This document shows, in pieces, positions 2,483-51,802 of a stretch of DNA of 64,000 nt. Both the position numbers and the translations under genes were made by a program. Position 1 is the stretch's first letter, and every line of letters starts with the position of its first letter. The notes below the pieces were generated by a model. The model was not told the DNA's origin. It did no database searches and was given only the letters and a program-made list of their open reading frames with translations. The stretch is from the NCBI RefSeq assembly GCF_056746865.1, contig NZ_CM163382.1; one strand, 5' to 3'.

Positions 2483-3109
<627 letters not shown>

Positions 3110-3198
3110 CTAACTTCGCTTATTATGGGGATCAGTTTCAGGGTTTCAAGGGAAGCACTCACATTGTCATCAATCTTCGCAACAAGGACCTCGGAAAA

Positions 3199-4077
3199 AT
3201 GAATAATCATTTCAAGTGTATTGGCATTGTGGGACACCCACGGCACCCTACTGCACTGACAACACATGAAATGCTCTACCGCTGGCTGTGCACAAAAGGT
3301 TACGAGGTCATCGTTGAGCAACAAATCGCTCACGAACTGCAACTGAAGAATGTGAAAACTGGCACGCTCGCGGAGATTGGGCAACTGGCTGATCTCGCGG
3401 TAGTCGTTGGTGGCGACGGTAATATGCTGGGCGCGGCGCGCACGCTCGCCCGTTACGATATTAAAGTTATTGGAATCAACCGTGGCAACCTGGGTTTCCT
3501 GACTGACCTTGACCCCGATAACGCCCAGCAACAGTTAGCCGATGTGCTGGAAGGTCACTACATAAGCGAGAAACGTTTTTTGCTGGAAGCGCAAGTCTGT
3601 CAGCAAGATTGCCAAAAGCGCATCAGCACCGCGATAAATGAAGTGGTACTTCATCCAGGCAAAGTGGCGCATATGATAGAGTTCGAAGTGTATATCGACG
3701 AGATCTTTGCGTTTTCTCAGCGTTCTGATGGCCTGATTATTTCGACGCCAACAGGCTCCACCGCCTATTCCCTCTCTGCGGGCGGTCCTATTCTGACCCC
3801 CTCTCTGGATGCGATTACCCTGGTGCCCATGTTCCCGCATACGTTGTCAGCGCGACCGCTGGTGATAAACAGCAGCAGCACGATCCGTCTGCGTTTTTCG
3901 CATCGCCGTAACGACCTGGAAATCAGTTGCGACAGCCAGATAGCACTGCCGATTCAGGAAGGTGAAGATGTCCTGATTCGTCGCTGTGATTACCATCTGA
4001 ATCTGATTCATCCGAAAGATTACAGTTATTTCAATACATTAAGCACCAAGCTCGGCTGGTCAAAAAAATTATTCTAA
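3199..4077 (+). CDS. nadK: NAD kinase
   Basis: 292-aa translation [17 protein letters not shown]... with GGDGN motif; conserved neighbour of grpE and recN. Confidence 0.95.
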
Positions 4078-4162
4078 TTTTACGCCAGCCTCTTTACTGT
4101 ATATAAAACCAGTTTATACTGTACACAATAACAGTAATGGTTTTTCATACAGGAAAACAACT

Positions 4163-5824
4163 ATGTTGGCACAACTGACCATCAGCAACTTTGCTATCGT
4201 TCGTGAGCTTGAGATTGATTTTCATAGCGGCATGACCGTAATAACTGGCGAGACCGGCGCGGGTAAATCTATTGCAATAGATGCCCTCGGCCTTTGTCTC
4301 GGTGGTCGCGCTGAAGCCGACATGGTGCGTACCGGCGCTGCTCGTGCCGACCTGTGCGCCCGTTTTTCTCTGAAAGATACGCCAGCGGCCCTGCGCTGGC
4401 TGGAAGAAAACCAGCTTGAAGACGGGCATGAATGTTTGCTTCGTCGCGTAATCAGCAGCGATGGTCGCTCACGAGGTTTTATCAACGGTACAGCGGTTCC
4501 TCTGTCACAACTGCGCGAACTGGGTCAGTTGCTGATTCAGATCCATGGTCAGCACGCTCATCAGTTACTCACCAAACCCGAGCACCAAAAATTCCTGCTT
4601 GATGGCTATGCCAATGAAACCTCTCTACTCCAGGAAATGACCGCACGTTATCAGTTGTGGCATCAAAGCTGCCGTGACCTCGCGCATCATCAACAGTTAA
4701 GTCAGGAACGCGCTGCCCGTGCGGAACTGCTGCAATACCAATTAAAAGAACTTAACGAATTTAATCCGCAGCCCGGAGAGTTTGAGCAAATCGACGAAGA
4801 GTACAAACGTCTGGCGAACAGCGGTCAATTGCTGACCACCAGCCAGAATGCATTGGCATTAATGGCCGACGGTGAAGACGCAAACCTGCAAAGTCAGCTT
4901 TACACGGCTAAACAACTGGTGAGCGAATTGATTGGCATGGACAGCAAACTGTCCGGCGTACTTGATATGCTGGAAGAAGCTACCATCCAGATTGCTGAAG
5001 CCAGCGACGAACTGCGCCACTACTGCGATCGTTTGGATCTCGATCCCAACCGGCTGTTTGAACTTGAACAACGCATCTCAAAACAGATTTCGCTGGCACG
5101 TAAACATCACGTCAGCCCTGAGGCATTGCCACAGTATTACCAGTCGCTACTGGAAGAACAGCAGCAACTGGACGATCAGGCCGACTCACAAGAAACGCTC
5201 GCGCTGGCGGTAACGAAACATCATCAGCAGGCACTGGAAACGGCGCGCGCGTTACACCAGCAACGCCAGCACTATGCAGAAGAACTTGCACAGCTGATCA
5301 CCGACAGTATGCATGCACTCTCTATGCCGCATGGGCAGTTTACGATTGATGTTAAATTTGACGAGCATCACCTGGGCGCTGACGGCGCTGATCGTATTGA
5401 ATTTCGGGTAACCACCAACCCAGGTCAGCCAATGCAGCCTATTGCCAAAGTCGCATCCGGTGGTGAATTGTCCCGCATCGCACTGGCAATTCAGGTCATC
5501 ACGGCGCGTAAAATGGAAACCCCGGCACTGATTTTTGATGAAGTGGATGTAGGGATTAGCGGTCCAACAGCGGCAGTTGTCGGCAAACTGCTGCGTCAAC
5601 TCGGCGAATCAACTCAAGTGATGTGTGTTACCCACCTGCCACAAGTCGCGGGATGTGGTCATCAACACTATTTTGTCAGCAAAGAAACCGATGGTGCGAT
5701 GACAGAAACGCATATGCAATCCCTGGATAAAAAAGCGCGGTTACAAGAGCTGGCGCGCCTGCTTGGTGGCAGTGAAGTCACACGTAACACACTGGCGAAT
5801 GCGAAAGAACTGCTTGCGGCGTAA
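4163..5824 (+). CDS. recN: DNA repair protein RecN (SMC-like ATPase)
   Basis: 553 aa; Walker A GETGAGKS near the N-terminus, coiled-coil middle, C-terminal signature region. Confidence 0.95.
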
Positions 5825-5972
5825 ACTTTTTTCCTGCTTCACGGTCAGAGTAAACAGCAAAACGCCGTAAGACCGGAAAGCAAAAGGTTTTAAAGTGATG
5901 AAAGGTCTATTATCATCGGCATATTACAGATGAGCCACGTACTGCTCGGGCCCGAAAAGGAATCAAATCACT

Positions 5973-7960: not shown

Positions 7961-8323
7961 GGGGCTGATTCTGGATTCGACGGGATTTGCGAAACCCAAG
8001 GTGCATGCCGAGGGGCGGTTGGCCTCGTAAAAAGCCGCAAAAAATAGTCGCAAACGACGAAAACTACGCTTTAGCAGCTTAATAACCTGCTTAGAGCCCT
8101 CTCTCCCTAGCCTCCGCTCTTAGGACGGGGATCAAGAGAGGTCAAACCCAAAAGAGATCGCGTGGAAGCCCTGCCTGGGGTTGAAGCGTTAAAACTTAAT
8201 CAGGCTAGTTTGTTAGTGGCGTGTCCGTCCGCAGCTGGCAAGCGAATGTAAAGACTGACTAAGCATGTAGTACCGAGGACGTAGGAATTTCGGACGCGGG
8301 TTCAACTCCCGCCAGCTCCACCA
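7961..8323 (+). ncRNA. ssrA: tmRNA (SsrA), 363 nt, ending in CCA
   Basis: Starts ggggctgattctggattcgacggg; contains the tag-reading-frame region gcaaacgacgaaaactacgctttagcagcttaa (ANDENYALAA-stop); ends ...ggttcaactcccgccagctccacca. Confidence 0.95.
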
Positions 8324-8489: not shown

Positions 8490-9737
8490 ATGCCTAAGCA
8501 ACTGAAACCCTTAACAAATGTGGAGATCGCTGGCGCGAAGCCCCGTAGCACGGATTATGAGCTACGGGACGGTGAAGGCCTGTACTTGCTGGTTAAGACT
8601 TCAGGGAGGAAGGCCTGGCATTTCGAGTATTATCATCCCGTCACCAAAAAGCGCACCAAAACCAGCCTTGGCCCTTACCCGGTCGTTACACTGGCCATGG
8701 CTCGCGAAACTCGCACGAAATACAGACGACTGCTCTGGCAGGGCATCGATCCCCGTCAACACTTAGCAGGAATAGCCGAAGAAAAACGCCTCCAGAATGA
8801 ATGCACGCTGGAAAAAGTTGCGGAACAGTGGCTCAAAGAGAAGAAACGGACCAGCGACCTTAGCGAAGATCACGCCAAAGATGTCTGGCGCTCGCTGGAG
8901 ATGCACGTCTTCCCTTCTCTGGGCAGTACGCCCGTCACCGAGATCCGCCCGAAGATGCTCAAGGAACACCTCACCCCGCTGGAAGAACAGGGCATCCTCG
9001 AAACGCTGCGCCGGGTTATCTCACGGCTCAATGAAATCTTCCGCTTCGCCATCTCCGAAGAGCTTATCGAGTTTAACCCAGCAGACAACCTGGTCGCCCG
9101 CTTCAAGAAACCGAAAAAGCAGAACATGCCCGCCCTTCCCCCCAGCGAACTGGGCAGACTAATGTTGGCACTACAAAACGCCTCTATCCGCAAGGAAACA
9201 CGCTGCCTTATCGAATGGGAGCTACTGACCTGGGTTCGCCCCGGCGAAGCCGTTAGCGCCCGCTGGTGCGACATCGATATGAAAAAAGCGGAATGGCGTA
9301 TCCCTGACACCTTTATGAAGATGAACCGTTCACACACGGTGCCGCTCAGCAAACAGGCGCTGCGTGTTCTTCAGATCATGGAGCCCGTCAGCCGCCATCG
9401 TCCGTGGGTCTTCCCCAGCATCCGCAAACCGCTGGAGCACATGCACCAGCAGACCGCGAACGCCGCGCTTATCCGCATGGGGTTCGGCGGTGAGCTGGTC
9501 GCCCACGGCATGCGCAGCATCGCCAGAACGGCGGGCGCAGGTCATTTTCCCCGTGAAGTTCTGGAATCTGCACTGGCACACCAGAAAGAAGACGAGATCG
9601 AAGCGGCCTACAATCGCAGCGACTATCTGGAACAAAGGCGACCGCTCATGCAGTGGTGGGGAAACTACGTTGATGCCGCCAGACGGCAGGCATTGCTCGG
9701 TGAAGAAGAACCGCTGCGGATCGTGGAAGGAGAATAA
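8490..9737 (+). CDS. P4-type tyrosine integrase (IntA/SlpA-like)
   Basis: 415 aa; N-terminus MPKQLKPLTNVEIAGAKPRSTDYELRDGEGLYLLVKTSGRKAWHFEYYHP is the P4-integrase arm-binding type; C-terminal catalytic region with HxxR and Tyr; located directly next to ssrA. Confidence 0.9.
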   Translation: MPKQLKPLTNVEIAGAKPRSTDYELRDGEGLYLLVKTSGRKAWHFEYYHPVTKKRTKTSLGPYPVVTLAMARETRTKYRRLLWQGIDPRQHLAGIAEEKRLQNECTLEKVAEQWLKEKKRTSDLSEDHAKDVWRSLEMHVFPSLGSTPVTEIRPKMLKEHLTPLEEQGILETLRRVISRLNEIFRFAISEELIEFNPADNLVARFKKPKKQNMPALPPSELGRLMLALQNASIRKETRCLIEWELLTWVRPGEAVSARWCDIDMKKAEWRIPDTFMKMNRSHTVPLSKQALRVLQIMEPVSRHRPWVFPSIRKPLEHMHQQTANAALIRMGFGGELVAHGMRSIARTAGAGHFPREVLESALAHQKEDEIEAAYNRSDYLEQRRPLMQWWGNYVDAARRQALLGEEEPLRIVEGE

Positions 9738-33082: not shown

Positions 33083-33622
33083 TTATGCCGTCAGCCGATA
33101 GTGCGACTGCACCAGACCCGAAGGGAAGCTGCGGCTGGATAATAGCGTCAAATCGATATCATGGGGTAATACTCCGAATAGCGGTTTTCCCGAACCGAGC
33201 AGAACAGGAACAGTTGTGATAACGATATCGGCAACCAGACCTTCGCGCAGGAACGACTGTATTAACTGCCCGCCATCGATATAAACCCGGTGCACGTTCT
33301 TCTCCATAAGGTCAGCAAGAGCCTCCCTTGGCGTGCGGCATGAAAACTGTACTTTACCCTTCAGCGCCTTGGGCACGGGGGTATCGGTTAGCTGCCGGGA
33401 AAGCACCAGCACGGGCCGATCATAAGGCCATTCGTCAAAAGTCAGCACCTTCTCATAGGTGCCTCGTCCCATAATGATCCAATCTTTGTCCGCGATGAAT
33501 GCGGCATAGCCATGATCTTCTGTCGGGTCATCGCGCTTTAACAGCCAGTCGATATCGCCATCCTGTCGGGCGATATAACCATCAAGACTGACCGCGATGA
33601 AAACATGTGTGGTGACCATCAA
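33083..33622 (-). CDS. dihydrofolate reductase-like / RibD C-terminal domain family protein
   Basis: 179 aa; MMVTTHVFIAVSLDGYIARQDGDIDWL...IIMGRGTYE...VLSRQ pattern of the RibD_C/DHFR-like family. Confidence 0.7.
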   Translation of the reverse strand: MMVTTHVFIAVSLDGYIARQDGDIDWLLKRDDPTEDHGYAAFIADKDWIIMGRGTYEKVLTFDEWPYDRPVLVLSRQLTDTPVPKALKGKVQFSCRTPREALADLMEKNVHRVYIDGGQLIQSFLREGLVADIVITTVPVLLGSGKPLFGVLPHDIDLTLLSSRSFPSGLVQSHYRLTA

Positions 33623-33678
33623 GTGCTCCGTTTTCAGGTTGCATATATCTCGTTGAGTTTAGCAATGTTCGCTCCAGG

Positions 33679-33738
33679 CACGAAGCGAGCAAGTTACCTA
33701 AGTTGAAGGTCCGCAGGGAGCGAGGAGCAGAAGTTCGA
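33679..33738 (+). repeat. about 60-bp imperfect direct repeat, copy 1 (upstream of paralogue B)
   Basis: cacgaagcgagcaagttacctaagttgaaggtccgcagggagcgaggagcagaagttcga; about 70 percent identical to copy 2, with perfect blocks cacgaagcga, gaaggtccg, gagcgagga, gaagttc. Confidence 0.55.
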
Positions 33739-33843
33739 AGCACATCATGAAGTAAGTTTTAAAATGGGAGATAACTTGCTTTTACATATTTTCCAATGCA
33801 ATATCATACCCTTTTAAAAATAAATCAGATATATGAGGTGAAA

Positions 33844-34866
33844 ATGTCTAGTCTTAATTTATTCGATGATGTCGTACCTTTAGAAAAACAGCATCCAATA
33901 TATATAATGATGAAAAAGGAACGCTATGAACCGGAGAGAGAAGTAATTAACCAATGGGCAAAAGGATTTCTAGACAGGGATAATAAGTTTACAAAAGAAT
34001 TTCAAACAAGTTTTGAACCTTGCCTATGGGAGTTATATCTTTTTGCTTATCTTAAAGAATTGGGTTTAAGGAACGACTTTTCATACGATGCACCTGACTT
34101 CATCGTCAATGAACCTGGGTTTTGCATTGAGGCAACCATAGCCCTTCCGGCACAAGGAGCCCCTGGAGCGCATGGTTTCAGTACGGAAGATATGCCAAGA
34201 GATTTTAATAAGTTTAATTCTGAGGCATCTATTCGACTTAGCAATAGTTTTATATCAAAGGTAAAAAAATTAAGATCGAGATATTCTCAACTTCCTCAAT
34301 GTAAAGAAAAACCTTTTGTTATCGCCATAGCTTCCTTCGACCGACCTTTTGCGCACTTTGCCGCAGCCAGACCCATACTTGCAACATTATATGGTTTATA
34401 TCATGATGAAGAAGCAACCATTGAATCAGGATCAAAGAGCATAATTTCTTATAACGTTGAGGCTGCGGTAAAAAAAGAAAATGTTAATATAGCCATGGGG
34501 TTATTTTGCACGCCTGATTATTCGGATGTAAGTGCTGTGATTTATAGTAGTTTAGCTACTTGGGGAAAAGTAAGAGCTTTGGCGGACAATCCTTCAGCTC
34601 TAACAATTTATACAACCTTTACCCCAAGAGAAAATTCATTATATCCTAAAGTTCATCAAGCCAAAAAAAATGATTATATAGAGCATCTGGCAGATGGATT
34701 GTATATTTTACATAACCCATTTGCCAAGTATCCGTTGCCTAAAGAGACGCTAAGCCACCCTAGAGTAGCACAAGGTTATGTTGAATCTGATGGATACGTC
34801 AATTTTGTAGCGCCAGAGGATTTTCTTTTATTGCGTTTTTTACAATCATTCAATCTTAAAGATTAG
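33844..34866 (+). CDS. hypothetical protein, same unassigned family as 10733..11905 (paralogue B); candidate defence or abortive-infection protein
   Basis: AT-rich; GAGGTG Shine-Dalgarno before ATG 33844 (ORF opens at 33796); shares the motif blocks listed for paralogue A; flanked by the about 60-bp direct repeats. Confidence 0.7.
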   Translation: MSSLNLFDDVVPLEKQHPIYIMMKKERYEPEREVINQWAKGFLDRDNKFTKEFQTSFEPCLWELYLFAYLKELGLRNDFSYDAPDFIVNEPGFCIEATIALPAQGAPGAHGFSTEDMPRDFNKFNSEASIRLSNSFISKVKKLRSRYSQLPQCKEKPFVIAIASFDRPFAHFAAARPILATLYGLYHDEEATIESGSKSIISYNVEAAVKKENVNIAMGLFCTPDYSDVSAVIYSSLATWGKVRALADNPSALTIYTTFTPRENSLYPKVHQAKKNDYIEHLADGLYILHNPFAKYPLPKETLSHPRVAQGYVESDGYVNFVAPEDFLLLRFLQSFNLKD

Positions 34867-35065
34867 TAAATATGGTCATATTTATTTACTTTACATAGAT
34901 AAAGTCTAAAGATGGCACTTCCTTTAAACTCAACTACCTATGATTTAGAGTGGTTGTCCGGCCTGCTTCCGTAACCGTTAGTTCGACTGACGAGATTCCT
35001 GTTTCCCTCTAAAAGACTTGGTTGATTAAAACAGGTCACCGAATAGCCATTTAGTCCACTTTGAC

Positions 35066-35125
35066 CACGAAGCGACCGAACTAACTGAGCAGAAGGTCCG
35101 TTATGAGCGAGGAACGGAAGTTCAC
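35066..35125 (+). repeat. about 60-bp imperfect direct repeat, copy 2 (downstream of paralogue B)
   Basis: cacgaagcgaccgaactaactgagcagaaggtccgttatgagcgaggaacggaagttcac; see copy 1. Confidence 0.55.
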
Positions 35126-35196
35126 AGTTGATCTCACACCCAAATAGTCGCATTACTAACATTGCTGCGTGTTAATCAACAGGCAGCAGGTCACTC

Positions 35197-36294
35197 TTAT
35201 TTTCTTGATAGGCTTTGTATAGTATGAATAAACCTTACAAAGTTATGAAGAAGCTCGTGATTTTCCTCTGATATACCATCTGGGTCAAAGTGCATCACGT
35301 CGTTACGAATTATTCTGACCTTGTCGAGCTCTTTAGTAAATATTTTCTTATCTATTTGAAGTTCGGTTTTTTTCCACAATTCTGGATTTTCAAAAAGTCG
35401 TATATATTCCCCAAAGGTTAAATCTGCGACCGACTCTATAACCCGTTCGCTGTCAAATGGATTAACGATGCTAACAAGCTCATCTTTCGTAAATTTTCCA
35501 TCTATCAGCTTACGAATATGATTTTCGATTTCAGATAGTAAAAGAAAAGGTTCTGACAACTGTCTGAACTGAGAACTAAGATCGGTAGTAGTTATAATCC
35601 CACTAATTCTTTGATCAGAAGATCGCACTAATACGTAAGCATACTCAATAATTCTAGGTAGTGCAGAAAAAATAGAGTCACTGGCGTTTATTTCCCTGTG
35701 TGGCTTCATATAATCACGCACAACCGCAGATTCTGATTGGGTCAACGCTAGTATTGGAGCAATGCTTTCCCAACTAATAACACCTTTAACATCTCGCTCG
35801 CTGGTCATAACGGGTAGTTGAGAGTAGTCATGCCGCAACATCAATGTGATGGCTTCTGTTAATGTAGCGTCAGGTTTCACGGTCACTAGTTTAACATCCG
35901 ATGCTTCGAGTCGACTAACACGGAAGGCTGGCTCGGAAACTGCACCGGAAATTAGTTCATCATGCGGCTGAAATACTGTTTCAGGTGTAGCCAATTCGGC
36001 GTTACTTGATTCGGTTTCTTCATGTAAACATTCACCTGCTTCATGGGGCGTTGCGTCATTCCCCGGAGGTGCATAGATAGTAATTTTTGCATCCAGCGGC
36101 ACACTATCAAAATCAGGTTCGGTTTTAACTCCTAAGCTTTCTAATGCTTTGCGAATTTTGTACGCAACCATGTAGCCTCGACGCTCTGCGCCAAACCAGC
36201 TTATGAATTCTCGCACTGATACTGGGTTTGAGGACATACCGTCTTTTAGTTCACGAAGGATTTCGTTAAGTCTTTCTCGATTTTCTACTGCCAT
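35197..36294 (-). CDS. CBS-domain pair protein with C-terminal HEPN-like (Rx4-6H) domain; predicted nucleotide-regulated RNase-type effector
   Basis: 365 aa; CBS-like segments (TLTEAITLMLRHDYSQLPVM...VKGVISWESI and ISGIITTTDLS) followed by a helical C-terminal region with RNDVMHFD; AT-rich. Confidence 0.6.
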   Translation of the reverse strand: MAVENRERLNEILRELKDGMSSNPVSVREFISWFGAERRGYMVAYKIRKALESLGVKTEPDFDSVPLDAKITIYAPPGNDATPHEAGECLHEETESSNAELATPETVFQPHDELISGAVSEPAFRVSRLEASDVKLVTVKPDATLTEAITLMLRHDYSQLPVMTSERDVKGVISWESIAPILALTQSESAVVRDYMKPHREINASDSIFSALPRIIEYAYVLVRSSDQRISGIITTTDLSSQFRQLSEPFLLLSEIENHIRKLIDGKFTKDELVSIVNPFDSERVIESVADLTFGEYIRLFENPELWKKTELQIDKKIFTKELDKVRIIRNDVMHFDPDGISEENHELLHNFVRFIHTIQSLSRK

Positions 36295-36940
36295 AAAATT
36301 TTCTCCATGTAGGTTGTCGGCTACTGTTAGGTTTCAATCTTGATTCAGGCTTCTCACGCTTTTTTTAAAATCTGGACAACGAGGCTGCACTGACTTTTTC
36401 AGCTCACCTCAGATTGCACCATCCCATACACATAGCTCAGATTCCTAATGTTCAGTATAAGGAGGCCAGAATACGAATTGCCCTTACCGCTAGTGCCAGC
36501 GCGTTGAGTTTAGTAGATGCCTTATTCATTTAGAATTTGATAAAAATACAAGACTCGGACAACAAGCTGCAATATTAATCGTTATTTTTCCACTCGAGGC
36601 CCACCGTCCGTTTCTGGCACAGGGCTGCTGTTGCAGCCCTGAAAACCTTAGACTTCAATCGATTCAAAGATCTCTAATGCATCATCTACTTCAATACCCA
36701 GATAACGGACTGTGCTTTCCAGTTTCTTATGGCCCAACAGAAGTTGGATCACCCGAAGATTCTTAGTTTTCTTGTAGATAAAGTAGGGTTTTGTTCTTCT
36801 CATGGAACGTGTGCTGTAAAGCGAATCTTCGAGACCAAGCTTTCCTGCCCACCCATGAAAGATTCGGTTGTATTGTAGGGTTGATATGAACCGCCCCGGA
36901 AATCCTGGAGACTAAACTCCCTGAGAAAGAGGTAAACAGG

Positions 36941-37267
36941 ATGACTAAAAATACTCGTTTTTCCCCCGAAGTCCGTCAGCGGGCGATTCGTATGGTTCTG
37001 GAAAGTCAGGATGAATATGACTCACAGTGGGCGGCAATTTGTTCCATTGCCCCAAAGATTGGCTGTACGCCGGAGACTCTGCGTGTCTGGGTTCGCCAGC
37101 ATGAGCGGGATACCGGGGGCGGTGATGGTGGGCTCACCAGCGCTGAACGTCAGCGTCTGAAAGAGCTGGAACGTGAAAATCGTGAACTGCGCCGCAGTAA
37201 CGATATCCTTCGCCAGGCTTCCGCTTATTTTGCGAAGGCGGAGTTCGACCGCCTCTGGAAAAAATGA
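36941..37267 (+). CDS. IS3-family transposase OrfA (HTH)
   Basis: 108 aa [57 protein letters not shown]...; ends in an A6 run that overlaps the OrfB start (candidate -1 frameshift site). Confidence 0.9.
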
Positions 37268-38154
37268 TGCCACTGCTGGATAAGCTGCGTGAGCAGTACG
37301 GGGTCGGACCGGTATGCAGCGAACTGCATATTGCCCCGTCAACGTATTACCATTGTCAGCAACAGCGACATCATCCGGATAAACGCAGTGCCCGTGCGCA
37401 GCACGACGACTGGCTGAAGAGAGAGATACAGCGCGTATACGATGAAAATCATCAGGTGTACGGTGTGCGTAAAGTCTGGCGTCAGTTGTTACGGGAAGGA
37501 ATCAGGGTGGCCAGATGTACAGTGGCACGTCTCATGGCGGTTATGGGACTTGCCGGTGTTCTCCGGGGTAAAAAGGTCCGTACGACCATCAGCCGGAAAG
37601 CCGTTGCCGCAGGCGACCGCGTAAACCGTCAGTTCGTGGCAGAACGACCTGACCAGCTGTGGGTGGCTGATTTTACTTACGTCAGCACATGGCAGGGCTT
37701 CGTCTATGTGGCGTTTATCATTGATGTGTTTGCCGGATACATCGTGGGGTGGCGGGTCTCATCGTCTATGGAAACGACATTCGTGCTGGATGCGCTGGAG
37801 CAGGCGTTGTGGGCCCGTCGTCCGTCTGGCACCATCCATCACAGCGATAAAGGCTCTCAGTATGTGTCACTGGCCTATACGGAGCGACTAAAAGAAGCCG
37901 GATTACTGGCATCAACAGGGAGTACAGGCGACTCGTATGACAACGCGATGGCTGAGAGCATCAATGGTCTTTACAAAGCGGAGGTAATACACCGTAAGAG
38001 CTGGAAAAACCGTGCAGAAGTGGAACTGGCCACACTAACGTGGGTGGACTGGTATAACAATCGACGATTGCTGGGAAGGCTGGGCCATACTCCTCCGGCA
38101 GAAGCAGAAAAAGCTTATTATGCTTCCATCGGAAACGATGATCTGGCAGCCTGA
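37264..38154 (+). CDS. IS3-family transposase OrfB (DDE integrase core)
   Basis: 296 aa with DDE-type catalytic core (...[30 protein letters not shown]...[10 protein letters not shown]...[15 protein letters not shown]). Confidence 0.9.
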
Positions 38155-38923
38155 GTTCACAGATAAAACACTCTCCAGGAAACCCGGGGCGGTTCAATAT
38201 GTGCTGATTAGTTCCGATACGAGACCGGAACAAGAAGTCTTTATTGTGCAAATAATCAAGCTTTATCAATGCAGCAATAGCTTCTCTTGTTCCTTTGGTT
38301 ATCTCAAATTGCACAGGGCTACCGGTTTTCTGTTGCAACACCGTTGCTCTGCTTGAAACCAAGCGACCATATGCCACATCAGATACTTTGAGTTTGACCA
38401 GATCACAGCCTCGAAGCTTACTGTCCAGGGCCATATTGAACAGAGCTAAATCGCGCGTTTTGCCTTCCAGTTCAAGCCGGATTCGGGTCCCCCAGATATG
38501 AGATATCTGAAGTGGTCTTTTTTGGCCGATGATACGGTCTTTGTTCCACGGTGACGTGTTCATACTCAAATCTCCTGCAATGTGGGAGATTTGAGTATGG
38601 TTGTCCCTTATGAGCGCAGGCTGTGTGAAAACACTCACCAAATACTAAAATGTATGAGGTTATGCAAAATCTGGAATCAATCAGCTGATTATCAGAGTCG
38701 AATTTTACGTAGGGAAGATATTTTCAGCTCTGTTTTAGGCCATTTCTGCACTCAAAAACGTTTTCACACAGCCGCGGTCAGATCGCAATCTTGCACCACA
38801 ATCTGGTACGAGTCAGGCAAGCATTTGGGGTGAAAGCCTGTCCTGAGTGAGAATCTAACCAAGCATTGTGTTATGTTTAACAACTGGAGTAGACTACAAA
38901 ATCAATTAATTAAGGATCTTGAG

Positions 38924-39499
38924 ATGACTATAGCCGCAGCTTGGGTAAGAACTTTAAGAAATTGCAAAGAATTGATTGTAGTATCAGATAGTAGATTAAA
39001 TGGTGGTATGAAAATGGATTGTGGGCAGAAGATAATAACTCTGCCTCGTTCAGATGCTTTCATATGTTTCGCAGGTGATACTAGTTGGGCATATCCTTTG
39101 ATGCATCAAGTGGCATCAGCAATTGATATATATGATCGTTGCTCCTCACGAGCCCAAGATATTAAAGAACTCAAAACCCATATTCTTAAAATTTTTGAAC
39201 GACTGAGAGAGCAAATTCACGATGCCATAGGTGACATGGATATACCCGATGCAAAATTCATATTCGGGGGATATTCATGGATAAGAAAAAAATTCATGAT
39301 TTGGCACATCACCTACCAAAAGAGTACCAACTCTTTTCGTGCGGATCCTGCACGTGAAATATATGGATCACCTGTTGTATTTACTGGTGATGAAGAACAT
39401 GTAATTGTAGCTAATGCTATGCTTCGTGAAAAATTAAAATCAAGAGGGAAGCTGGATAATTTAGAAAAAGGCATGAAAAATACTGTTAAATTTGAATGA
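38924..39499 (+). CDS. HslV/proteasome beta-subunit-like Ntn-hydrolase-fold protein (tentative)
   Basis: From ATG 38924 (AAGGA Shine-Dalgarno; ORF opens at 38873) the product MTIAAAWVRTLRNCKELIVVSDSRLNGGMKMDCGQKIITLPRSDAFICFAGDTSWAYPLMHQ parallels HslV ([61 protein letters not shown]), with Thr directly after the initiator Met; AT-rich. Confidence 0.45.
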   Translation: MTIAAAWVRTLRNCKELIVVSDSRLNGGMKMDCGQKIITLPRSDAFICFAGDTSWAYPLMHQVASAIDIYDRCSSRAQDIKELKTHILKIFERLREQIHDAIGDMDIPDAKFIFGGYSWIRKKFMIWHITYQKSTNSFRADPAREIYGSPVVFTGDEEHVIVANAMLREKLKSRGKLDNLEKGMKNTVKFE

Positions 39500-39523
39500 G
39501 AACCATTTGAAGTTATTCGAGAC

Positions 39524-39799
39524 ATGTTTTACAAAGTTAATGAAAGTTCTTATGAATTTAAAAACTCATCAATTGGAGGCGCGCCCCAAATCCTAAAAAT
39601 CTATGAACATTTATCAAGTCAAAAACTTGGTGTTCTGTGGAAGAACAGGATGGATAGTGAACCGAACATATATTTATCTGGCCGGAGGCTTACTAATTAT
39701 GGTCCGCGAGATATGTGGATACTAGACCCTGAAAAACTGATAACGTACAATCCATTGAAAAGTAATCCTGATAAGGAGGTAATTAATCAATTCATTTAA
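39524..39799 (+). CDS. small hypothetical protein (91 aa) downstream of the HslV-like gene
   Basis: ORF only; same strand and AT-rich context. Confidence 0.3.
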   Translation: MFYKVNESSYEFKNSSIGGAPQILKIYEHLSSQKLGVLWKNRMDSEPNIYLSGRRLTNYGPRDMWILDPEKLITYNPLKSNPDKEVINQFI

Positions 39800-46482: not shown

Positions 46483-47937
46483 TTATACAAGGGGACGATT
46501 CTCAATGGGACTATCCTCAGGGGAATTTTCCTCAGAGGAACTATCATCAAAGTCATCATCCATAGATGAAATACCATCGAATGGTGCCACGCCCGTGATT
46601 AGTTTTATTTTATTATTACGATCAGTCAAGACTCCATTTAAACCATTTTCGCTGACGGATTTTAATAATTTATCATAACTCTTATTGTCATCAGGCACAT
46701 TAAAAATACACGGAGTATCAACATCAAACAATGACGTTCCCCAGTTCACATATTGAATATCATAGTTACTGAAGTTCTGTCCAGAAAAGAAGCATCCCTT
46801 AAAATCCAATCCACGTAAATTATATAAACTACCCTCTTCTTTTGGGAGAGCAATTTTAATTCTGGCTATCTCCCAGACAAAATTGCCATTTTTGTATTTG
46901 AATACCGTTTCAAGCTCTCCTCCAGACAACTTGACTTCTGGAAATAATTTGAAATTAAACCCTACATTATTATGTGTCAACGTAGATGAACAAAAGATGG
47001 AAAAAGCTTGCAGTGCTGAATTATAGCTATCGATTTTATCTTGAGGCTGCGCTCTTGGTAAAAACTTATAGCAACACTCATAAAAATTAAGTAGAAACTC
47101 TGATGACCTTCCATTTTTATCAAATAATACCCGCTGAAAATGCTGCACAAACTTATTCGTTTTTTCTTGAATATCTATGGTGTGTTCCTTTGACTCTAAC
47201 AAAGATGAATCCTGTTGAAGTGCATTGCTCATCTGGTTGAGGAACAACTGCATTTCTTTCAACTTATCTCCATAGTGACCTTTAACTTGCTGAGAATTTT
47301 TAGTTACAGTTGAAACCTTATCTGTGTGGTTTTCATATAAATTATGTGATTCCATACAGTCATTTGGCGGCGTTTCTGAAATAACACTACGCGTTCTACC
47401 TGGCTGAAGTGAAGCAACATGAAAATCACTTTTTCTTATATTGCCGAATAGGGTCTGTTCATTTCTCTTAGCGCATTCAATAAACTGATCAACATTATTT
47501 TTATTAGATGACAGGTTAATTTCAGAAACCGCATTTTCTTTGTTCTCCAGCTTTAGTTTAACGAGAAGGTCTTCCCACACCGTTTTTTTTAAAAATACTA
47601 CGTCAGGCTCACCATCAGCAACTAACTCTTGATTATTATCAAAGTGTACGTTGTATACTTTTAATTTATTTTCATTAGCATCATATTTAATACGTTTTAA
47701 TTGTTCTCCGGCTCCCATAATGACAAAAGCATTGCCTTCATGATATTTACATTCAGACATCATTTTTTGTAAAATTTCAAGAGCACCGTTATACGTCCCT
47801 GAGGCAGCTTCTTTACAAATTAATTTTATAATACTATAAGCTAGTAACTCCATGGATTTAGAAGATTTTCTTTCATTACAATTTCCACTATTTATAAATG
47901 TGCTAGTGTTAATTTCGTTGCTTTTACTAACTAACAT
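46483..47937 (-). CDS. hypothetical protein with C-terminal pentapeptide repeats
   Basis: 484 aa, AT-rich; five-residue periodicity in LRGLDFKGCFFSGQNFSNYDIQYVNWGTSLFDV. Confidence 0.6.
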   Translation of the reverse strand: MLVSKSNEINTSTFINSGNCNERKSSKSMELLAYSIIKLICKEAASGTYNGALEILQKMMSECKYHEGNAFVIMGAGEQLKRIKYDANENKLKVYNVHFDNNQELVADGEPDVVFLKKTVWEDLLVKLKLENKENAVSEINLSSNKNNVDQFIECAKRNEQTLFGNIRKSDFHVASLQPGRTRSVISETPPNDCMESHNLYENHTDKVSTVTKNSQQVKGHYGDKLKEMQLFLNQMSNALQQDSSLLESKEHTIDIQEKTNKFVQHFQRVLFDKNGRSSEFLLNFYECCYKFLPRAQPQDKIDSYNSALQAFSIFCSSTLTHNNVGFNFKLFPEVKLSGGELETVFKYKNGNFVWEIARIKIALPKEEGSLYNLRGLDFKGCFFSGQNFSNYDIQYVNWGTSLFDVDTPCIFNVPDDNKSYDKLLKSVSENGLNGVLTDRNNKIKLITGVAPFDGISSMDDDFDDSSSEENSPEDSPIENRPLV

Positions 47938-48693
47938 TGTCTTTTCCTCAGTTAATGTCTACATGGCTATTTTTAATGTTATTATTGTTTGTCACTATAA
48001 AAAATCGCTCATTTGAGACAATTGCTGGCATTAACAGCTTCATATGCTATACATGGTACTTTTAATTAATTTAGCACAAGAATGTTAAATTTAATAAGCA
48101 AAAGGTTATTTCACTGTATGATAAAAACCACCCGTTATAATTTATTCGTGAGAATCGTTTTTTGAGTGTTAGAAATTTATATCTAAATAGCGTTGATTAA
48201 TGACCAAAGCCAGACTCCTGTAATGCTCACAAGACTCTTCTGCATTCGACGGCGGTTCTAGTCAGTAGTAGATGTTTAAGGCGTGGCAGAGACATTTCAT
48301 CCTTACTCTACAGCATTGGTCCACATACAAATCGTGGTTGTGACACTTCACTTATCATCAGTGAGCGAACAGAGAATAGTTCAGTGATTTGAGTAATTAA
48401 CCTGATTAAATGAAGAGGCATGATAAATGATAATACTCTGGCTTTATCGTTAATTACTTAATTCCACATGTAAGCAATTTGCCCGCTTGGCATAGCGGGC
48501 ATTTTTTCCAGGTACTTTTGAATGAGTACTGATGGATAAATACATTGCAGTGGCGTGCCACGTACCAAAACACCAGCCCTCATTCGAAACTACCTACCGC
48601 ACTGCTTCTTTAAAATGGCGTTAGTCGTGAAATATTGACCGCCATCGAGTCCCCCTTGTAACCTTAACTCTTCCTGATACGTGAATAATGATT

Positions 48694-48769
48694 TGGTGGC
48701 CCTTGCTGGACTTGAACCAGCGACCGGACGATTATGAGTCGTCTGCTCTAACCACTGAGCTAAAGGGCC
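48694..48769 (-). tRNA. ileY: tRNA-Ile (anticodon CAU, lysidine-modified Ile2 type)
   Basis: Reverse strand reads GGCCCTTTAGCTCAGTGGTTAGAGCAGACGACTCATAATCGTCCGGTCGCTGGTTCAAGTCCAGCAAGGGCCACCA; cloverleaf with CAT anticodon and encoded CCA end. ORF 48590..48787 is an artefact over it. Confidence 0.85.
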
Positions 48770-49328
48770 TTGAGTATGCAATAACAATACTTATATACCA
48801 CGCAATAAACATGATGATCTTATGATGTAAATAACAGATTTTTATACGTTCTCATTCATCCTGGGTCGTCATTACCTGCGACATAAAACCCGACACCGAT
48901 TCCATTCACAAAGTCGATACTCTCAGTCAACAAGCAAATGCTAATACTTAGCACTATTTATAGTTACCATCGATTCAATGATAGTTTGTAATGATTTTGT
49001 ATCTAATAATATAACTTTATTACATTAACTGAAGAGTTTTCGCATCATTATGATATCTGTTACTTTTCACCCCATAAAAATAAACTTCATATAGCAATAT
49101 ATTCTTTCATAGATCTTATTCTGCTAATCATTAGTTTCGTATGAGCGATTTTTGACAGTTGCCTCTCCAGACCACATCGATAATTAAAAAAACAGATTTA
49201 AGCATTATCCTTTTCCATATAAATATTGGATAAAAGTAGGACATCTGTTTGCAATTACTTTCACAACAATTAAACATTTTTATGTTTCCGTATACACCAT
49301 ATTACTCTACCATTAGAGGAACTTTATT

Positions 49329-51581
49329 ATGTTTTCTATAAAACCAGGACCAAGAAATTTACCTATCGACAACCCCACATTGTTATCATGGAACATTACT
49401 GACGGGGATCTAAATTCCAAATTAAATACATTAGAATATCTAAACTGTATAACAAATATTATTAATTCTTGTGGAGTTTATCCTCAGGATTTAAAAGACA
49501 GAGAAATTATATCAACTTTTCACGCAGAAAAAGTTATTAATGATCTGTTAAAAAACAATTATAAAATTTCCCTTTTTCCAGATACAACTTACCGAGAGTT
49601 GAATAAAGCAGCACAGCGTAGCATTACAGCGCCAGACAGGATAGGAGAAGGAAAAACATGGGTTTATCAACGAGATACAATGGTTGAAAGAGGTGATAAC
49701 AGCGGTGTTCATCAGTATGGTCCAGCTGAACATTTTACTCACATTATATCTGACAAACCGTCCCCAAAAGATAAGTATGTTGCATATGCTATTAACATTC
49801 CTGACTATGAACTGGCAGCTGATGTATATAATATTAACGTAACGTCACCTACCGGCCAGCAAGAAACATTTAAAATATTAATCAATCCAGAACATCTACG
49901 GCAAACACTTGAGCGTAAATCTCTTACTGCTGTTCAGAAATCACAATGTGAAATCATCACCCCCAAAAAACCTGGCGAAGCGATTCTTCATGCTTTTAAT
50001 GCCACCTATCAACAAATCAGGAAAAATATATCTGAGTTTGCACGTTGTCATTATGGGTATATACAAATCCCTCCCGTAACCACTTTCCGCGCCGACGGAC
50101 CAGAAACTCCCGAAGAAGAAAAAGGTTACTGGTTTCACGCTTATCAACCCGAAGATCTTTGTACTATCCATAATCCAATGGGAGATTTGCAGGATTTTAT
50201 CGCATTGGTTAAAGATGCCAAAAAATTTGGTATCGATATCATCCCTGATTATACATTTAACTTTATGGGAATCGGGGGTAGTGGTAAAAATGATCTGGAT
50301 TATCCCTCTGCCGATATACGAGCGAAGATCAGTAAAGATATAGAAAGTGGTATCCCTGGCTATTGGCAAGGTCAGGTCTTGATTCCCTTTATTATAGATC
50401 CAGTAACAAAAGAACGTGACCAAATCCATCCAGAAGATATACATCTCACTGCAAAAGACTTCGAAGCAAGTAAAGATAATATTTCTAAGGATGAATGGGA
50501 AAACCTCCATGCATTAAAAGAAAAGCGTTTAAATGGAATGCCTAAAACAACCCCCAAAAGTGACCAGGTTATTATGTTGCAAAATCAATACGTTCGTGAA
50601 ATGCGAAAATATGGCGTACGAGGTTTACGTTATGATGCAGCAAAACACTCAAAACATGAACAAATAGAGAGGTCGATAACCCCACCGCTTAAAAATTATA
50701 ATGAGCGGTTGCACAATACAAATTTATTTAATCCAAAATATCAAAAAAAAGCTGTTATGAATTACATGGAATACCTGGTAACTTGTCCGTTAGATGAACA
50801 ACAAATGTCATCGCTGCTTTATGAAAGAGATGATTTAAGCGCCATTGATTTTTCATTGCTCATGAAGACGATAAAAGCCTTTTCATTCGGTGGAGATCTC
50901 CAAGCCCTTGCATCAAAACCGGGCTCCACAATCTCAAGCATCCCATCAGAAAGACGGATATTGATTAACATCAACCACGATTTCCCTAACAATGGTAATC
51001 TTTTCAATGACTTTTTATTTAACCATCAGCAAGATGAACAATTAGCAATGGCATATATGGCCGCTCTCCCGTTCAGCAGGCCTTTAGTTTACTGGGATGG
51101 TCAGGTATTAAAATCAACGACTGAGATTAAAAATGATGATGGGTCCACTCGTGTCGGCGGTGAAGCGTGGCTTAATAAAGGTTGCTCTACCTATCAGCAG
51201 CTCTACAATGAATTCCACGCATTATATATAGATAAAGAAGGAATATGGAGCGCATTTGAGGGTGTATTTGCAACTAAAAATGTTCTGGCCTTTAGTCGTG
51301 GGGATTCTGTGAACATTAATCACTCTCCTCATGATGGACTAGTTATAATAAATAAAGGAAACGAAGAAGTTGAAGGTACCTGGCCTAACAAATTGCAACC
51401 AGGAATATATAAAAACATGGGGAGTAATAGCGTTACCATTATTAATAATAATACACGCAAAAGTATTCCCCCTGGTAAAGTATTTACGCTTAGAGGTGGA
51501 GCTCTAAATATCAATATTCCTGGGCGCAGCGCTCTTCTTTTAGGGAAAACAGGAGAACCGCCGAACTATTTCTATTTGTAA
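49329..51581 (+). CDS. YgaQ-like protein with alpha-amylase (GH13-type) catalytic-domain features, apparently full-length
   Basis: 750 aa, AT-rich; position after ileY matches ygaQ, which is fragmented in K-12. Confidence 0.6.
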   Translation: MFSIKPGPRNLPIDNPTLLSWNITDGDLNSKLNTLEYLNCITNIINSCGVYPQDLKDREIISTFHAEKVINDLLKNNYKISLFPDTTYRELNKAAQRSITAPDRIGEGKTWVYQRDTMVERGDNSGVHQYGPAEHFTHIISDKPSPKDKYVAYAINIPDYELAADVYNINVTSPTGQQETFKILINPEHLRQTLERKSLTAVQKSQCEIITPKKPGEAILHAFNATYQQIRKNISEFARCHYGYIQIPPVTTFRADGPETPEEEKGYWFHAYQPEDLCTIHNPMGDLQDFIALVKDAKKFGIDIIPDYTFNFMGIGGSGKNDLDYPSADIRAKISKDIESGIPGYWQGQVLIPFIIDPVTKERDQIHPEDIHLTAKDFEASKDNISKDEWENLHALKEKRLNGMPKTTPKSDQVIMLQNQYVREMRKYGVRGLRYDAAKHSKHEQIERSITPPLKNYNERLHNTNLFNPKYQKKAVMNYMEYLVTCPLDEQQMSSLLYERDDLSAIDFSLLMKTIKAFSFGGDLQALASKPGSTISSIPSERRILININHDFPNNGNLFNDFLFNHQQDEQLAMAYMAALPFSRPLVYWDGQVLKSTTEIKNDDGSTRVGGEAWLNKGCSTYQQLYNEFHALYIDKEGIWSAFEGVFATKNVLAFSRGDSVNINHSPHDGLVIINKGNEEVEGTWPNKLQPGIYKNMGSNSVTIINNNTRKSIPPGKVFTLRGGALNINIPGRSALLLGKTGEPPNYFYL

Positions 51582-51592
51582 TTTAATGTTAT

Positions 51593-51618
51593 ATCTGCCC
51601 CGCTAAAACGGGGCAGAT
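51593..51618 (+). terminator. hairpin after the ygaQ-like gene
   Basis: atctgccccgctaaaacggggcagat; weak downstream T-run. Confidence 0.4.
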
Positions 51619-51802
51619 AATATGTTTAGTTTACTAACGGTCATTTTGCAGTGAAGCCATTTACTGTTTTTTATCGACCAGATAATCTGTTCTCTGATGG
51701 TAGCTCCCCCTAACCTGTTGCTTTAGTTATTCATTTCCTGTCTCACTTTGCCTTAATACCCCACATTAAATGTTACTAATTTGTTGTCTTTGATCACAAT
51801 AA

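Follow-up and report, generated by a model that had tools for sequence, protein, structure and literature searches.

The presence of an insertion sequence (IS) within a tyrosine recombinase gene of a genomic island raises the question of whether the insertion has altered the behaviour of that island or is an ordinary polymorphism, and of what kind of gene was broken. This was addressed in a window comprising the whole 64-kb stretch of DNA under analysis, and the coordinates of the features considered are collected in Table 1. It is very probable that an IS1203/IS629 element entered a recombinase gene for a 200-aa protein (here called int200) at codon 121-122, in a CP4-57-like ssrA island of an E. 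coli chromosome, duplicating ATA, and that the practical effect was small. The IS insertion itself is routine and of a known kind, one more strain-specific IS1203/IS629 polymorphism.

Table 1. Coordinates of the IS, the split recombinase gene, and the surrounding island features within the window
Feature	Coordinates	Strand	Basis or remark
ssrA tmRNA	7961-8323		
Island integrase, 415 aa, uninterrupted, beside ssrA	8490..9737	+	Context, outside the IS event
Cassette 3, RibD_C/DHFR-family	33083-33619	-	
Second S'-linker-S doublet, cassette 2/cassette 3 boundary	33667..33732	-	
Cassette 2, 340-aa hypothetical	33844-34866	+	
S'-linker-S doublet, TCCGTTCCTCGCTCATAACGGAC + 19 nt + GTCGCTTCGTGGTCAAAGTGGAC	35054..35118	-	S half degenerate; 'type A' architecture
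Cassette 1, DS-11 CBS-domain anti-phage gene, S to S'	35119..36605	-	CDS 35197-36294
GC hairpin CAGGGCTG-N6-CAGCCCTG fused to S centre and right arm TGTGCCAGAAACGGAC	36606..36641	-	Directly after int200 stop
int200 3' part: RSMRR, LLGH, TVRY tyrosine, stop codon	36648..36886	-	Pfam PF00589 on repaired protein
ATA, left target-site duplication copy	36884..36886	.	
IS1203/IS629-type insertion sequence, IS3 family	36887..38196	+	1310 bp, from length and ends
IRL, TGAACCGCCCCGGAAATCCTGGAGA	36887..36911	+	
orfA, 108 aa, HTH_Tnp_1	36941..37267	+	Pfam PF01527, E=2.4e-12
ALIL frameshift-stimulating pseudoknot	37222..37338	+	Rfam RF01497
A6 slippery run	37259..37264	+	..TGG AAA AAA TGA in orfA frame; orfB ATG at 37264, -1 frame
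orfB, 296 aa, DDE integrase core (rve)	37264..38154	+	Pfam rve, E=9.3e-28, plus HTH_21, rve_3
IRR, TGAACCGCCCCGGGTTTCCTGGAGA	38172..38196	-	22/25 match to IRL
ATA, right target-site duplication copy	38197..38199	.	
int200 5' part, codons 1-121 plus 1 nt	38200..38563	-	Mapped onto annotated intact gene
14-bp inverted repeat, 9-nt loop, over int200 Shine-Dalgarno and ATG	38562..38598	-	Seen in sequence
Degenerate S'-type site upstream of int200, CAGCCTGCGCTCATAAGGGAC	38603..38623	-	Compared with GTCCGCTnnTCGCTCATAAGGGAC of homologous loci

The element has the characters of the IS3 family, namely a length of 1310 bp (within ~1.2-1.5 kb), termini of the TG...CA type (TGAACC...GGTTCA), a target duplication of 3 bp, which in this family is sometimes 4 bp, and orfA and orfB in the 0 and -1 frames. 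The span originally predicted for it was exact, and its designation as IS629/IS1203-like was borne out by 99.5-99.9% nucleotide identity to copies from O157, O111, and other strains that are labelled by RefSeq as 'IS3-like element IS1203 family transposase', which places it within the range of an isoform (>=95% nucleotide identity) relative to these RefSeq-named IS1203 copies. ISfinder places IS629/IS1203 in the IS51 group. The predicted 25-bp terminal inverted repeats are present, but the description of them as near-perfect was too generous; 22 of 25 positions are complementary, and the three mismatches, all of them central, are normal for IS629/IS1203. No further copies of the IS ends were found in the 64-kb window (0 expected by chance). 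The orfB product scored 316 bits with the NCBIfam model transpos_IS3, and the ALIL pseudoknot was matched over its full length in Rfam (121.5 bits against a gathering score of 50, E=1.5e-32). The predicted OrfAB fusion of 404 aa matches the 1214-nt CDS of near-identical RefSeq copies, and PGAP annotates such sister copies with 'programmed frameshift'. The assignment of the A6 run at the OrfA/OrfB junction as the -1 frameshift site is supported by the arrangement of the frames, the ALIL match, and this 1214-nt CDS. With both inverted repeats, orfA, orfB, the A6 run, and ALIL in place, the element is structurally complete, and since it is so, this copy should express the OrfAB transposase by -1 frameshifting and should still be mobile. 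It agrees with IS629/IS1203 in length, TG...CA ends, 25-bp repeats, 3-bp duplication, the sizes of OrfA (108 aa) and OrfB (296 aa), the A-run, and ALIL; no structural difference was seen, and the insertion site alone is new. Within the family, it matches the IS1203-like 'sub-type I' of Rump et al. 2011 (PMC3271280).

A copy of ATA flanks the element on each side, whereas the empty site has a single ATA in E. coli AF206, as in about 124 further genomes. In-silico removal of the IS and one ATA joined ...SRIGTNQHI to STLQYNRIFHGW... in frame, and the repaired minus-strand ORF (38563..38200 + 36886..36648; 603 bp, 200 aa) is identical in DNA sequence to the annotated gene for WP_001305755.1 (200 aa). 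The restored gene is likewise 100% identical to the uninterrupted allele of about 124 complete E. coli genomes. The original prediction thus held for the ATA duplication, for the splitting of a minus-strand tyrosine recombinase gene, and for the in-frame rejoining of its halves upon excision and translation. The junction between the IS and the recombinase gene was present in 0 of 5,426 complete genomes. On this comparison the insertion is recent and strain-specific, because otherwise identical genomes have the uninterrupted gene and none has this junction.

The repaired 200-aa protein consists of a catalytic domain only and matched Phage_integrase (PF00589) with E=1.6e-14 (54.5 bits against a cut-off of 27.1), while a homologue (P0017) matched the phrog_216 integrase with E=8.7e-32. 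int200 is a member of a conserved family of ~200-aa tyrosine recombinases that have the catalytic domain only. Five of the six catalytic residues are present (R51, K79, R151, H174, and Y183), and the HxxR histidine is replaced by Arg in this allele only (H148R), being His in 14 of 14 homologues. Together with H148R, the pre-insertion allele carries four other changes at otherwise invariant positions; judged from the one His-to-Arg change, it was probably already impaired. The insertion truncates int200 after residue about 122, so that the second catalytic Arg is lost along with the His and the Tyr nucleophile, and the result is a null allele. The hairpin over the int200 start was recovered by RNAalifold across 10 homologous loci with 15 pairs, 4 of which show compensatory changes. 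A PDB sequence search returned no match, PADLOC returned no match for int200, DS-11, or their neighbours, and the AlphaFold model (pLDDT 48) was too poor for a fold search.

The surroundings of int200 form an array in the order int200, S, DS-11, S'-S, ORF, S'-S, RibD_C. S and S' are 23-bp palindromic sites (8-7-8) that share their inverted 8-bp arms and differ in the 7-bp centre; S reads GTCCGCTY-TGTGCCA-RRAGCRGAC, with the centre TGTGCCA, and S' reads GTCCGCTYY-TCGCTCA-AAGCAGAC, with the centre TCGCTCA. Similarity to 230 other E. coli genomes ends exactly at 36606. The first cassette gene was identified as DS-11 by the NCBIfam model NF053863 (DS11_antiphage; 404.9 bits, cut-off 260) and is preceded within its cassette by about 310 nt of upstream sequence. 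A search of the window with an S-only profile had found no second S site, and the S'-S doublets appeared once S' had been defined. The int200 unit was also considered as a mini-transposon bearing terminal inverted repeats, but with both site types defined the S'/S reading took its place. Sought in other contexts, the DS-11 cassette was found neither in the other E. coli genomes nor in 50,697 phage records, and a promoter and terminator scan gave no signal above the shuffled expectation. The array may be a fossil example of an S/S' cassette system with int200 at its head.

Comparison with other loci showed that every int200 gene has S' on its 5' side and S on its 3' side, that the family appears to head arrays of S/S'-bounded cargo, and that a recombinase clade of about 60% identity is accompanied by variant repeats of its own. 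From this association of gene and site, we infer that int200 would act on S and S'; against it, int200 is present at only 6 of the 118 S-containing phage-type loci. Where the same backbone carried different cargo, the left-arm base was kept in 201 of 204 pairs and the right-arm bases in ~50%, and where the same cargo was found on different backbones, right-arm base 16 was kept in 10 of 10 pairs. Exchange maps to the centre of the site because polymorphisms on its left and right segregate with backbone and cargo, respectively. The fixed junction of a cargo-exchange site was found for S both in these arm polymorphisms and in explicit cases of shared flanks. Two different Providencia islands share, at 98.9% identity, a 6.5-kb block with an S site at each end, and four S sites are present in BE311. 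In the P2-type Z/fun hotspot, TIR and other cargo are bracketed by S, some 60 nt past the Caudo_TAP gene, and S', immediately ahead of the tail-sheath gene.

We tentatively propose, with somewhat less than even confidence, that the ~200-aa recombinase family may be the enzyme of a natural cassette-exchange system that uses the heterospecific sites S and S', and the source of cargo swapping at hotspots. In such a system, S and S' would bracket defence and other cargo in recombinase arrays, at P2-like Z/fun hotspots, after umuC/rumB-like genes, in P4-integrase islands, and in ICEs, and exchange between them would let the same cargo pass between unrelated mobile elements. How cargo is swapped at the P2 hotspot is still described as unknown in a 2026 preprint. 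No description of S/S' or of this recombinase was found in the literature searched; Nilsson et al. 2004 and Odegrip et al. 2006 lay outside that search, and the S/S' sites may already have been described in the former.

Two other accounts of the interrupted gene were weighed against a plain insertion of small effect. An assembly artefact or IS-mediated rearrangement, in which the flanks were once apart or the IS was placed by repeat collapse, would draw on the fact that IS629-family elements are multi-copy in related genomes (6-8 places per genome), a usual cause of misassembly. It is extremely improbable in view of the perfect 3-bp duplication and of the rejoined flanks, a 1088-bp region that is 100% identical in at least 60 genomes among the matches listed (126 genomes at >=80% coverage); moreover, AF206 is identical to the window (100%) on either side of the insertion and is collinear with it across 64 kb save for the IS positions. 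The event is a simple insertion without rearrangement. The original prediction had gone further and held that inactivation would lock part of the island in place, which takes the split integrase to be the active excision and integration enzyme of that part and the IS to have immobilised the segment. That int200 is a genuine Phage_integrase-family gene with five of six catalytic residues speaks for this, as does the tie of its family to direct site repeats bounding transferable blocks, such as the two-S block of the Providencia islands. The island, however, has a separate and intact integrase next to ssrA (415 aa, with Arm-DNA-bind_3, Phage_int_M, and Phage_integrase domains), while the 200-aa int200 lies about 28 kb from ssrA, inside the island, lacks the arm- and core-binding N-terminal domains of a P4-type island integrase, and is not at an island end as defined by att. 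The 64 kb contain a single good S site, the neighbouring doublets being partly degenerate, and the allele had H148R. In 128 of 128 E. coli genomes that share these flanks, the unit keeps its place and orientation, as do its neighbours, with the gene interrupted or intact. No empty sites or inverted copies of the unit were found in E. coli, and in the 124 genomes with an intact gene neither the unit nor the DS-11 cassette was polymorphic, be it in presence, position, or orientation. Locking is for these reasons unlikely, and this part of the prediction could not be upheld. We infer that the practical consequence of the insertion is small, because excision of the island uses a different, intact integrase, the allele was probably impaired already, and the local partner sites are eroded. 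The most that was possibly lost is a local enzyme for swapping S/S' cassettes, here DS-11 and two others.

A further alternative concerns why this stretch was hit at all. IS629-family insertions occur at 36884-6 in the window, at 36710-2 in AF206 and MMC-J-0066, and at 36410-2 in S1-ISR-02-A, in backbones that are otherwise 100% identical, and the copies in AF206 and S1-ISR-02-A belong to a different IS sub-type (about 96.2% identical). An IS629-family insertion is also present in the 91%-identical homologue of BE311-type strains, and an IS5 in SCU-313. With at least three independent IS629-family insertions in a roughly 0.5-kb stretch of near-identical genomes, neutral chance does not fully account for the recurrence, which reflects either regional target preference or selection. 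Under selection, the insertion would have been favoured because it silences the recombinase and stabilises the defence array, or because it alters DS-11 expression, and the independent hits at three nearby positions, in the BE311-type homologue, and in SCU-313 are consistent with this. Even so, selection is quite unlikely: each variant is rare (1-3 of about 129 genomes, 124 of which have the intact form), the IS transposase is encoded on the other strand from int200 and DS-11, with no promoter signal above chance, DS-11 has its own upstream sequence in the cassette, and target or regional preference of the IS accounts for the recurrence equally well. A strong IS629 target consensus, for which many top BLAST matches ran 6-22 nt past the right end of the IS, was rejected as selection bias among 32,000 matches. 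The insertion-site logo of 118 unique IMG/VR sites gave a weak C-N-[TSD]-N-G preference, and TGTRCT was found at 0 of the 118; the int200 gene itself contains three TGTGCT motifs. Target choice of IS629 was stated to be unknown by Rump et al. 2011 (PMC3271280), and the literature searched gave nothing on target specificity beyond this; the repeated hits in the 0.5-kb stretch bear on that choice.

As a plain insertion of small effect, the IS is a typing marker at most, and a reminder that genes annotated 'integrase' within islands are frequently relics. Which gene was broken could matter more, as it marks the int200/S/S' system, whose sites border variable cargo in mobile elements of several kinds, including the P2 defence hotspot. 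If true, the cassette-exchange reading would supply the missing mechanism of 'hotspot' cargo swapping.

Among known systems, the array is like an integron in that a tyrosine recombinase heads a series of short cassettes, mostly of one gene each, that are parted by elements of roughly 65 nt made of imperfect palindromes, the same cassettes occur on different backbones, and the cargo includes defence genes. It differs in that int200 has 200 aa (IntI about 320 aa) and lacks both the N-terminal domain and the IntI-specific insertion, scoring 46 bits with the NCBIfam XerA/integron-integrase model (cut-off 220), and in that S and S' are 23-bp double-strand-type palindromes with two centres rather than attC hairpins, with the cassettes lying between S and S'. 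An integron-like architecture is present in the window, and no cassette mobility was seen among the genomes compared. In size and in having the catalytic domain only, int200 is similar to the small invertases FimB and FimE (about 200 aa), but its match to invertase models was weak (E=2e-4, 21 bits against a cut-off of 222) and no orientation polymorphism was seen at the int200 locus in 128 genomes. A variable locus after the tail-fibre assembly gene of P2-like phages (Z/fun, 'TO') was reportedly described by Nilsson, Karlsson & Haggard-Ljungquist in 2004 (Mol Biol Evol 21:1). The P2-like variable locus after this gene is also treated by Rousset et al. 2022 (PMC9122126), and it has the same S and S' bracketing as the array, although the locus in the window is not a P2 prophage. 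The sites themselves, with inverted 8-bp arms around a 7-bp centre, are built like those of Cre/lox, Flp/FRT, Xer/dif, and Acinetobacter pdif, whereas their sequence is unrelated to lox, FRT, and dif, and the enzyme is here assigned by gene-site association. As in cassette exchange with heterospecific spacers, two different centres flank the cargo, which is the logic of exchange without deletion.

The inserted element was found, by direct reading of the sequence and by script, to span 36887-38196, exactly 1310 bp, with TGAACCGCCCCGG at its start and CCGGGGCGGTTCA at its end. The two 25-nt termini agree at 22 positions, in a pattern of 13 matches, three mismatches, and nine matches, which confirms the predicted terminal inverted repeats, and the 3-bp target duplication is present as ATA at 36884-36886 and 38197-38199. 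No further copy of the ends was detected within the window, where none is expected by chance. The orfB frame, which opens with an ATG at 37264, lies -1 relative to that of orfA, and the proposal that the A6 run at their junction (37259-37264, read TGG AAA AAA TGA in the orfA frame) is the likely -1 frameshift site was upheld by an ALIL frameshift pseudoknot matched over its full length in Rfam (37222-37338; 121.5 bits, gathering score 50) and by the agreement of the predicted 404-aa orfA-orfB fusion with a 1214-nt 'programmed frameshift' CDS annotated by PGAP in sister copies. Thousands of copies were returned by a megablast search of 5,426 complete E. coli genomes, and the best IS-only matches, in O157:H7, O111, and other strains, were 99.5-99.9% identical and labelled 'IS3-like element IS1203 family transposase' in RefSeq, in keeping with the original assignment as IS629/IS1203-like. 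IS1203 is an isoform of IS629, 'sub-type I' of Rump et al. 2011 (PMC3271280). The element, like its behaviour, is already known.

Excision in silico of the IS and one ATA, followed by translation, joined the flanking halves in frame, as had been claimed, into a minus-strand ORF of 200 aa (38563..38200 + 36886..36648), here termed int200, which encodes a tyrosine recombinase and reads ...SRIGTNQHI up to the junction and STLQYNRIFHGW...LLGHKKLESTVRYLGIEVDDALEIFESIEV beyond it. Over its 1088 bp, the repaired region has 100% identity to at least 60 genomes among the matches listed, at least 80% of it is covered in 126 genomes, and the uninterrupted gene of strain 2017C-4173W12 is annotated as a 603-bp tyrosine-type recombinase (WP_001305755.1). 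E. coli AF206 is collinear with the window at 99.99-100% identity across all 64 kb except at IS positions. Since identical uninterrupted alleles occur elsewhere and an 80-bp left-junction query located the junction in none of the 5,426 genomes, the insertion is derived and strain-specific; an assembly artefact or rearrangement is very unlikely. The finding is real, correctly described, and ordinary, a known IS at a new place.

Other E. coli strains carry at least three additional independent IS629-family insertions in the same stretch of about 0.5 kb or in the homologous one (L001 12312-13621; L306 301-1610; L002 8205-9514). A different IS629 sub-type (96.2% identical) is present 175 bp away in AF206 and MMC-J-0066, with the duplication GAC at 36710-36712; S1-ISR-02-A carries a copy of that sub-type with the duplication CAG at 36410-36412, between the palindromic site S and the DS-11 gene; and in BE311-type strains an IS1203-type copy with the duplication ATG interrupts a 91%-identical int200 homologue. 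The backbone is identical to the window in the first two cases, and SCU-313 has an IS5 within the same stretch. The three intragenic insertions share one orientation, and each lies directly against one of the TGTGCT/TGTACT motifs, of which that strand of the gene has just three. A target logo built from 118 unique IS629 right flanks (loci L006-L125) gave a weak, roughly symmetric preference and no extended motif: the second base after the duplication is G in 54% of sites, TG follows the duplication in 20%, and the second base before it is C in 20 of the 31 sites with a verified duplication. Rump et al. 2011 (PMC3271280) reported no target pattern. The local recurrence could stem from regional or target preference or from selection.

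Coordinates of the island, element, and cassette features (window positions unless a locus is named)
Feature	Coordinates	Strand	Details
ssrA tmRNA	7961-8323
Island's own integrase	8490-9737		415 aa, uninterrupted; Arm-DNA-bind_3, Phage_int_M, Phage_integrase
orfA	36941-37267		108 aa; HTH_Tnp_1 match
orfB	37264-38154		296 aa; rve, HTH_21, rve_3; NCBIfam transpos_IS3, 316 bits
14-bp perfect inverted repeat	38562-38598	minus	9-nt loop; pairs int200 Shine-Dalgarno and AUG
int200 (interrupted)	38563..36648	minus
Hairpin and S	36641-36606	minus
Cassette 1	36605-35119	minus	DS-11 CBS-domain anti-phage CDS 36294-35197; NCBIfam NF053863, 404.9 bits
First S'-linker-S doublet	35118-35054	minus (reading)
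Cassette 2	33844-34866		340-aa hypothetical protein
Second S'-S doublet	33732-33667	minus (reading)
Cassette 3	33619-33083		RibD_C/DHFR-family gene
ileY tRNA	48694-48769		CAU anticodon
Sites of the ~60%-identity clade	L152 321, 3515, 5687; L173 5278, 6623

The window runs from ffh and ssrA through a CP4-57-like island to ypjA, ypjC, ileY, and sequence beyond the island. The original prediction held that inactivation of the split gene would lock that part of the island in place. As stated this is unsupported, mainly because the island has a separate, intact integrase of its own, followed by AlpA and DUF927 genes, and int200 lies 28 kb deeper, its repaired product consisting of the catalytic domain alone (PF00589, residues 35-184). 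Near-identical islands differ by further IS-linked changes: the ypjC of AF206 contains an IS1 flanked by a 9-bp duplication (window 47625-47633), where the window is uninterrupted, and in 2017C-4173W12 an IS5 takes the place of window 48262-51722, which holds ileY and an alpha-amylase-like gene.

The repaired protein was aligned with 14 homologues (74-91% identity) from E. coli, Sodalis, Pantoea, Providencia, Proteus, Cycloclasticus, Idiomarina, and Pseudoalteromonas. Residues R51, K79, R151, H174, and Y183 are retained; solely in the window allele, among those aligned, the HxxR histidine is replaced by arginine (H148R; STRSMRR versus STHSMRR), and I26T, R125L, L157F, and S195F occupy columns that are elsewhere invariant or nearly so. 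Impairment of the allele may predate the arrival of the IS, and the five changes suggest relaxed constraint ahead of that event. Decay is frequent in the family, with nonsense alleles in L149 and L160, an internally deleted allele shared by some ten contigs (L163-L171, L174), and loci reduced to a C-terminal remnant (L175-L178). The family is highly conserved, at 75-91% identity between genera with the final 40 residues nearly invariant, and at the loci examined its genes always lie within islands or ICEs, flanked by cargo blocks.

The conserved unit extends beyond the gene by about 70 nt on its upstream side and about 45 nt on its downstream side. RNAalifold gave 15 pairs, four of them compensatory, across 10 loci for the inverted repeat over the start codon, which looks like translational sequestration of the int200 start; it could instead be a protein-binding palindrome. 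Farther upstream lies GTCCGCTnnTCGCTCATAAGGGAC, and directly after the stop codon a GC hairpin runs into TGTGCCARRAGCGGAC, past which the loci diverge abruptly. Two ORFs of 208 and 91 aa (window 38873-39799), without a match in Pfam, NCBIfam, PHROG, or PADLOC, stand upstream of int200 at the place expected for a cassette on its S' side.

The motif downstream of the gene forms one half of a 23-24-bp palindrome, S (GTCCGCTY-TGTGCCA-RRAGCRGAC), and extra copies in the same orientation delimit cargo blocks. A 6.5-kb block occurs at 98.9% identity in two Providencia islands that occupy different chromosomal positions (L132 2102-8643, L135 2101-8643); it encodes LysR, two aldo-keto reductases, a hydrolase, a flavodoxin, glutathione peroxidase (GSHPx), and the small recombinase, and its edges are exactly two S sites. 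In E. coli BE311, four S sites separate blocks of one or two genes. A scan of IMG/VR for the palindromic form of S returned at least 120 stretches and at least 88 unique contexts. Among the matches listed, the left flanks group into a small number of conserved classes, most often the 3' end of a tail-fibre assembly gene (Caudo_TAP, E=1e-34), and right flanks are highly variable, diverging right after ...GAC; S also lies 18-60 nt past umuC/rumB-like and other conserved genes. In P2-like prophages, the variable cargo that separates the tail-fibre assembly gene from the tail-sheath gene is enclosed by S and a second site, S' (GTCCGCTYY-TCGCTCA-AAGCAGAC), which shares its arms but not its centre with S and was found at the right cargo edge in 11 of 15 Caudo_TAP-type loci examined. 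The order Caudo_TAP, S, TIR-domain cargo, second site, tail sheath in L216 (oriented 2674-5905) is that of the P2 Z/fun-type hotspot; L232 and L208 (IMG/VR set L187-L304) also have these sites around cargo. According to a 2026 preprint on P2/P4 hotspots, cargo arrives 'through a presumably different mechanism'. Consecutive cassettes are parted by doublets of S', 19 nt, and S, and int200 takes the position of the 19-nt linker.

The point of exchange was mapped in 84 unique S contexts among the IMG/VR matches listed. In pairs with the same backbone and different cargo, the left-arm variable base was kept in 201 of 204 and the right-arm variable bases in about 50%; in pairs with the same cargo and different backbones, right-arm base 16 was kept in 10 of 10. 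Because arm bases thus segregate with backbone on the left and cargo on the right, the join lies within the invariant TGTGCCA centre, as expected for the overlap region of a tyrosine recombinase. The same cargo is joined at S to differing backbones: cargo starting atagcaggtgccagatgc has three different left flanks, and that starting gtctagttcgctgaacc is preceded by an int200 gene (L137), a doublet (L162), or a third backbone (L192). A recombinase clade of ~60% identity is accompanied by repeated sites of its own, all on one strand, in which a related core, GGCCAGAAGC, is combined with different hairpin arms; the site appears to co-vary with the enzyme. These patterns support site-specific cassette exchange, with the int200 family as the best candidate enzyme; the assignment is associative, since a small recombinase gene is present in only 6 of 118 S-bearing phage-type loci among the IMG/VR matches listed (L187-L304).

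The S and S' sites of the window array show partial degeneracy, the 127-128 genomes that have the array all carry it in identical form, and the DS-11 cassette occurred in no other context in the E. coli genomes or phage collection; loss of int200 therefore probably changed little, and the array looks like a fixed, fossil one. No description of the S/S' system was found in the literature searched. The title of Nilsson et al. 2004 suggests that at least the sites had already been noticed then, so novelty of the system is uncertain. The worthwhile lead is the cassette architecture of recombinase and S/S' sites, interrupted by chance by the IS, which in the array beside int200 (33667-36641, minus strand) is integron-like in layout.
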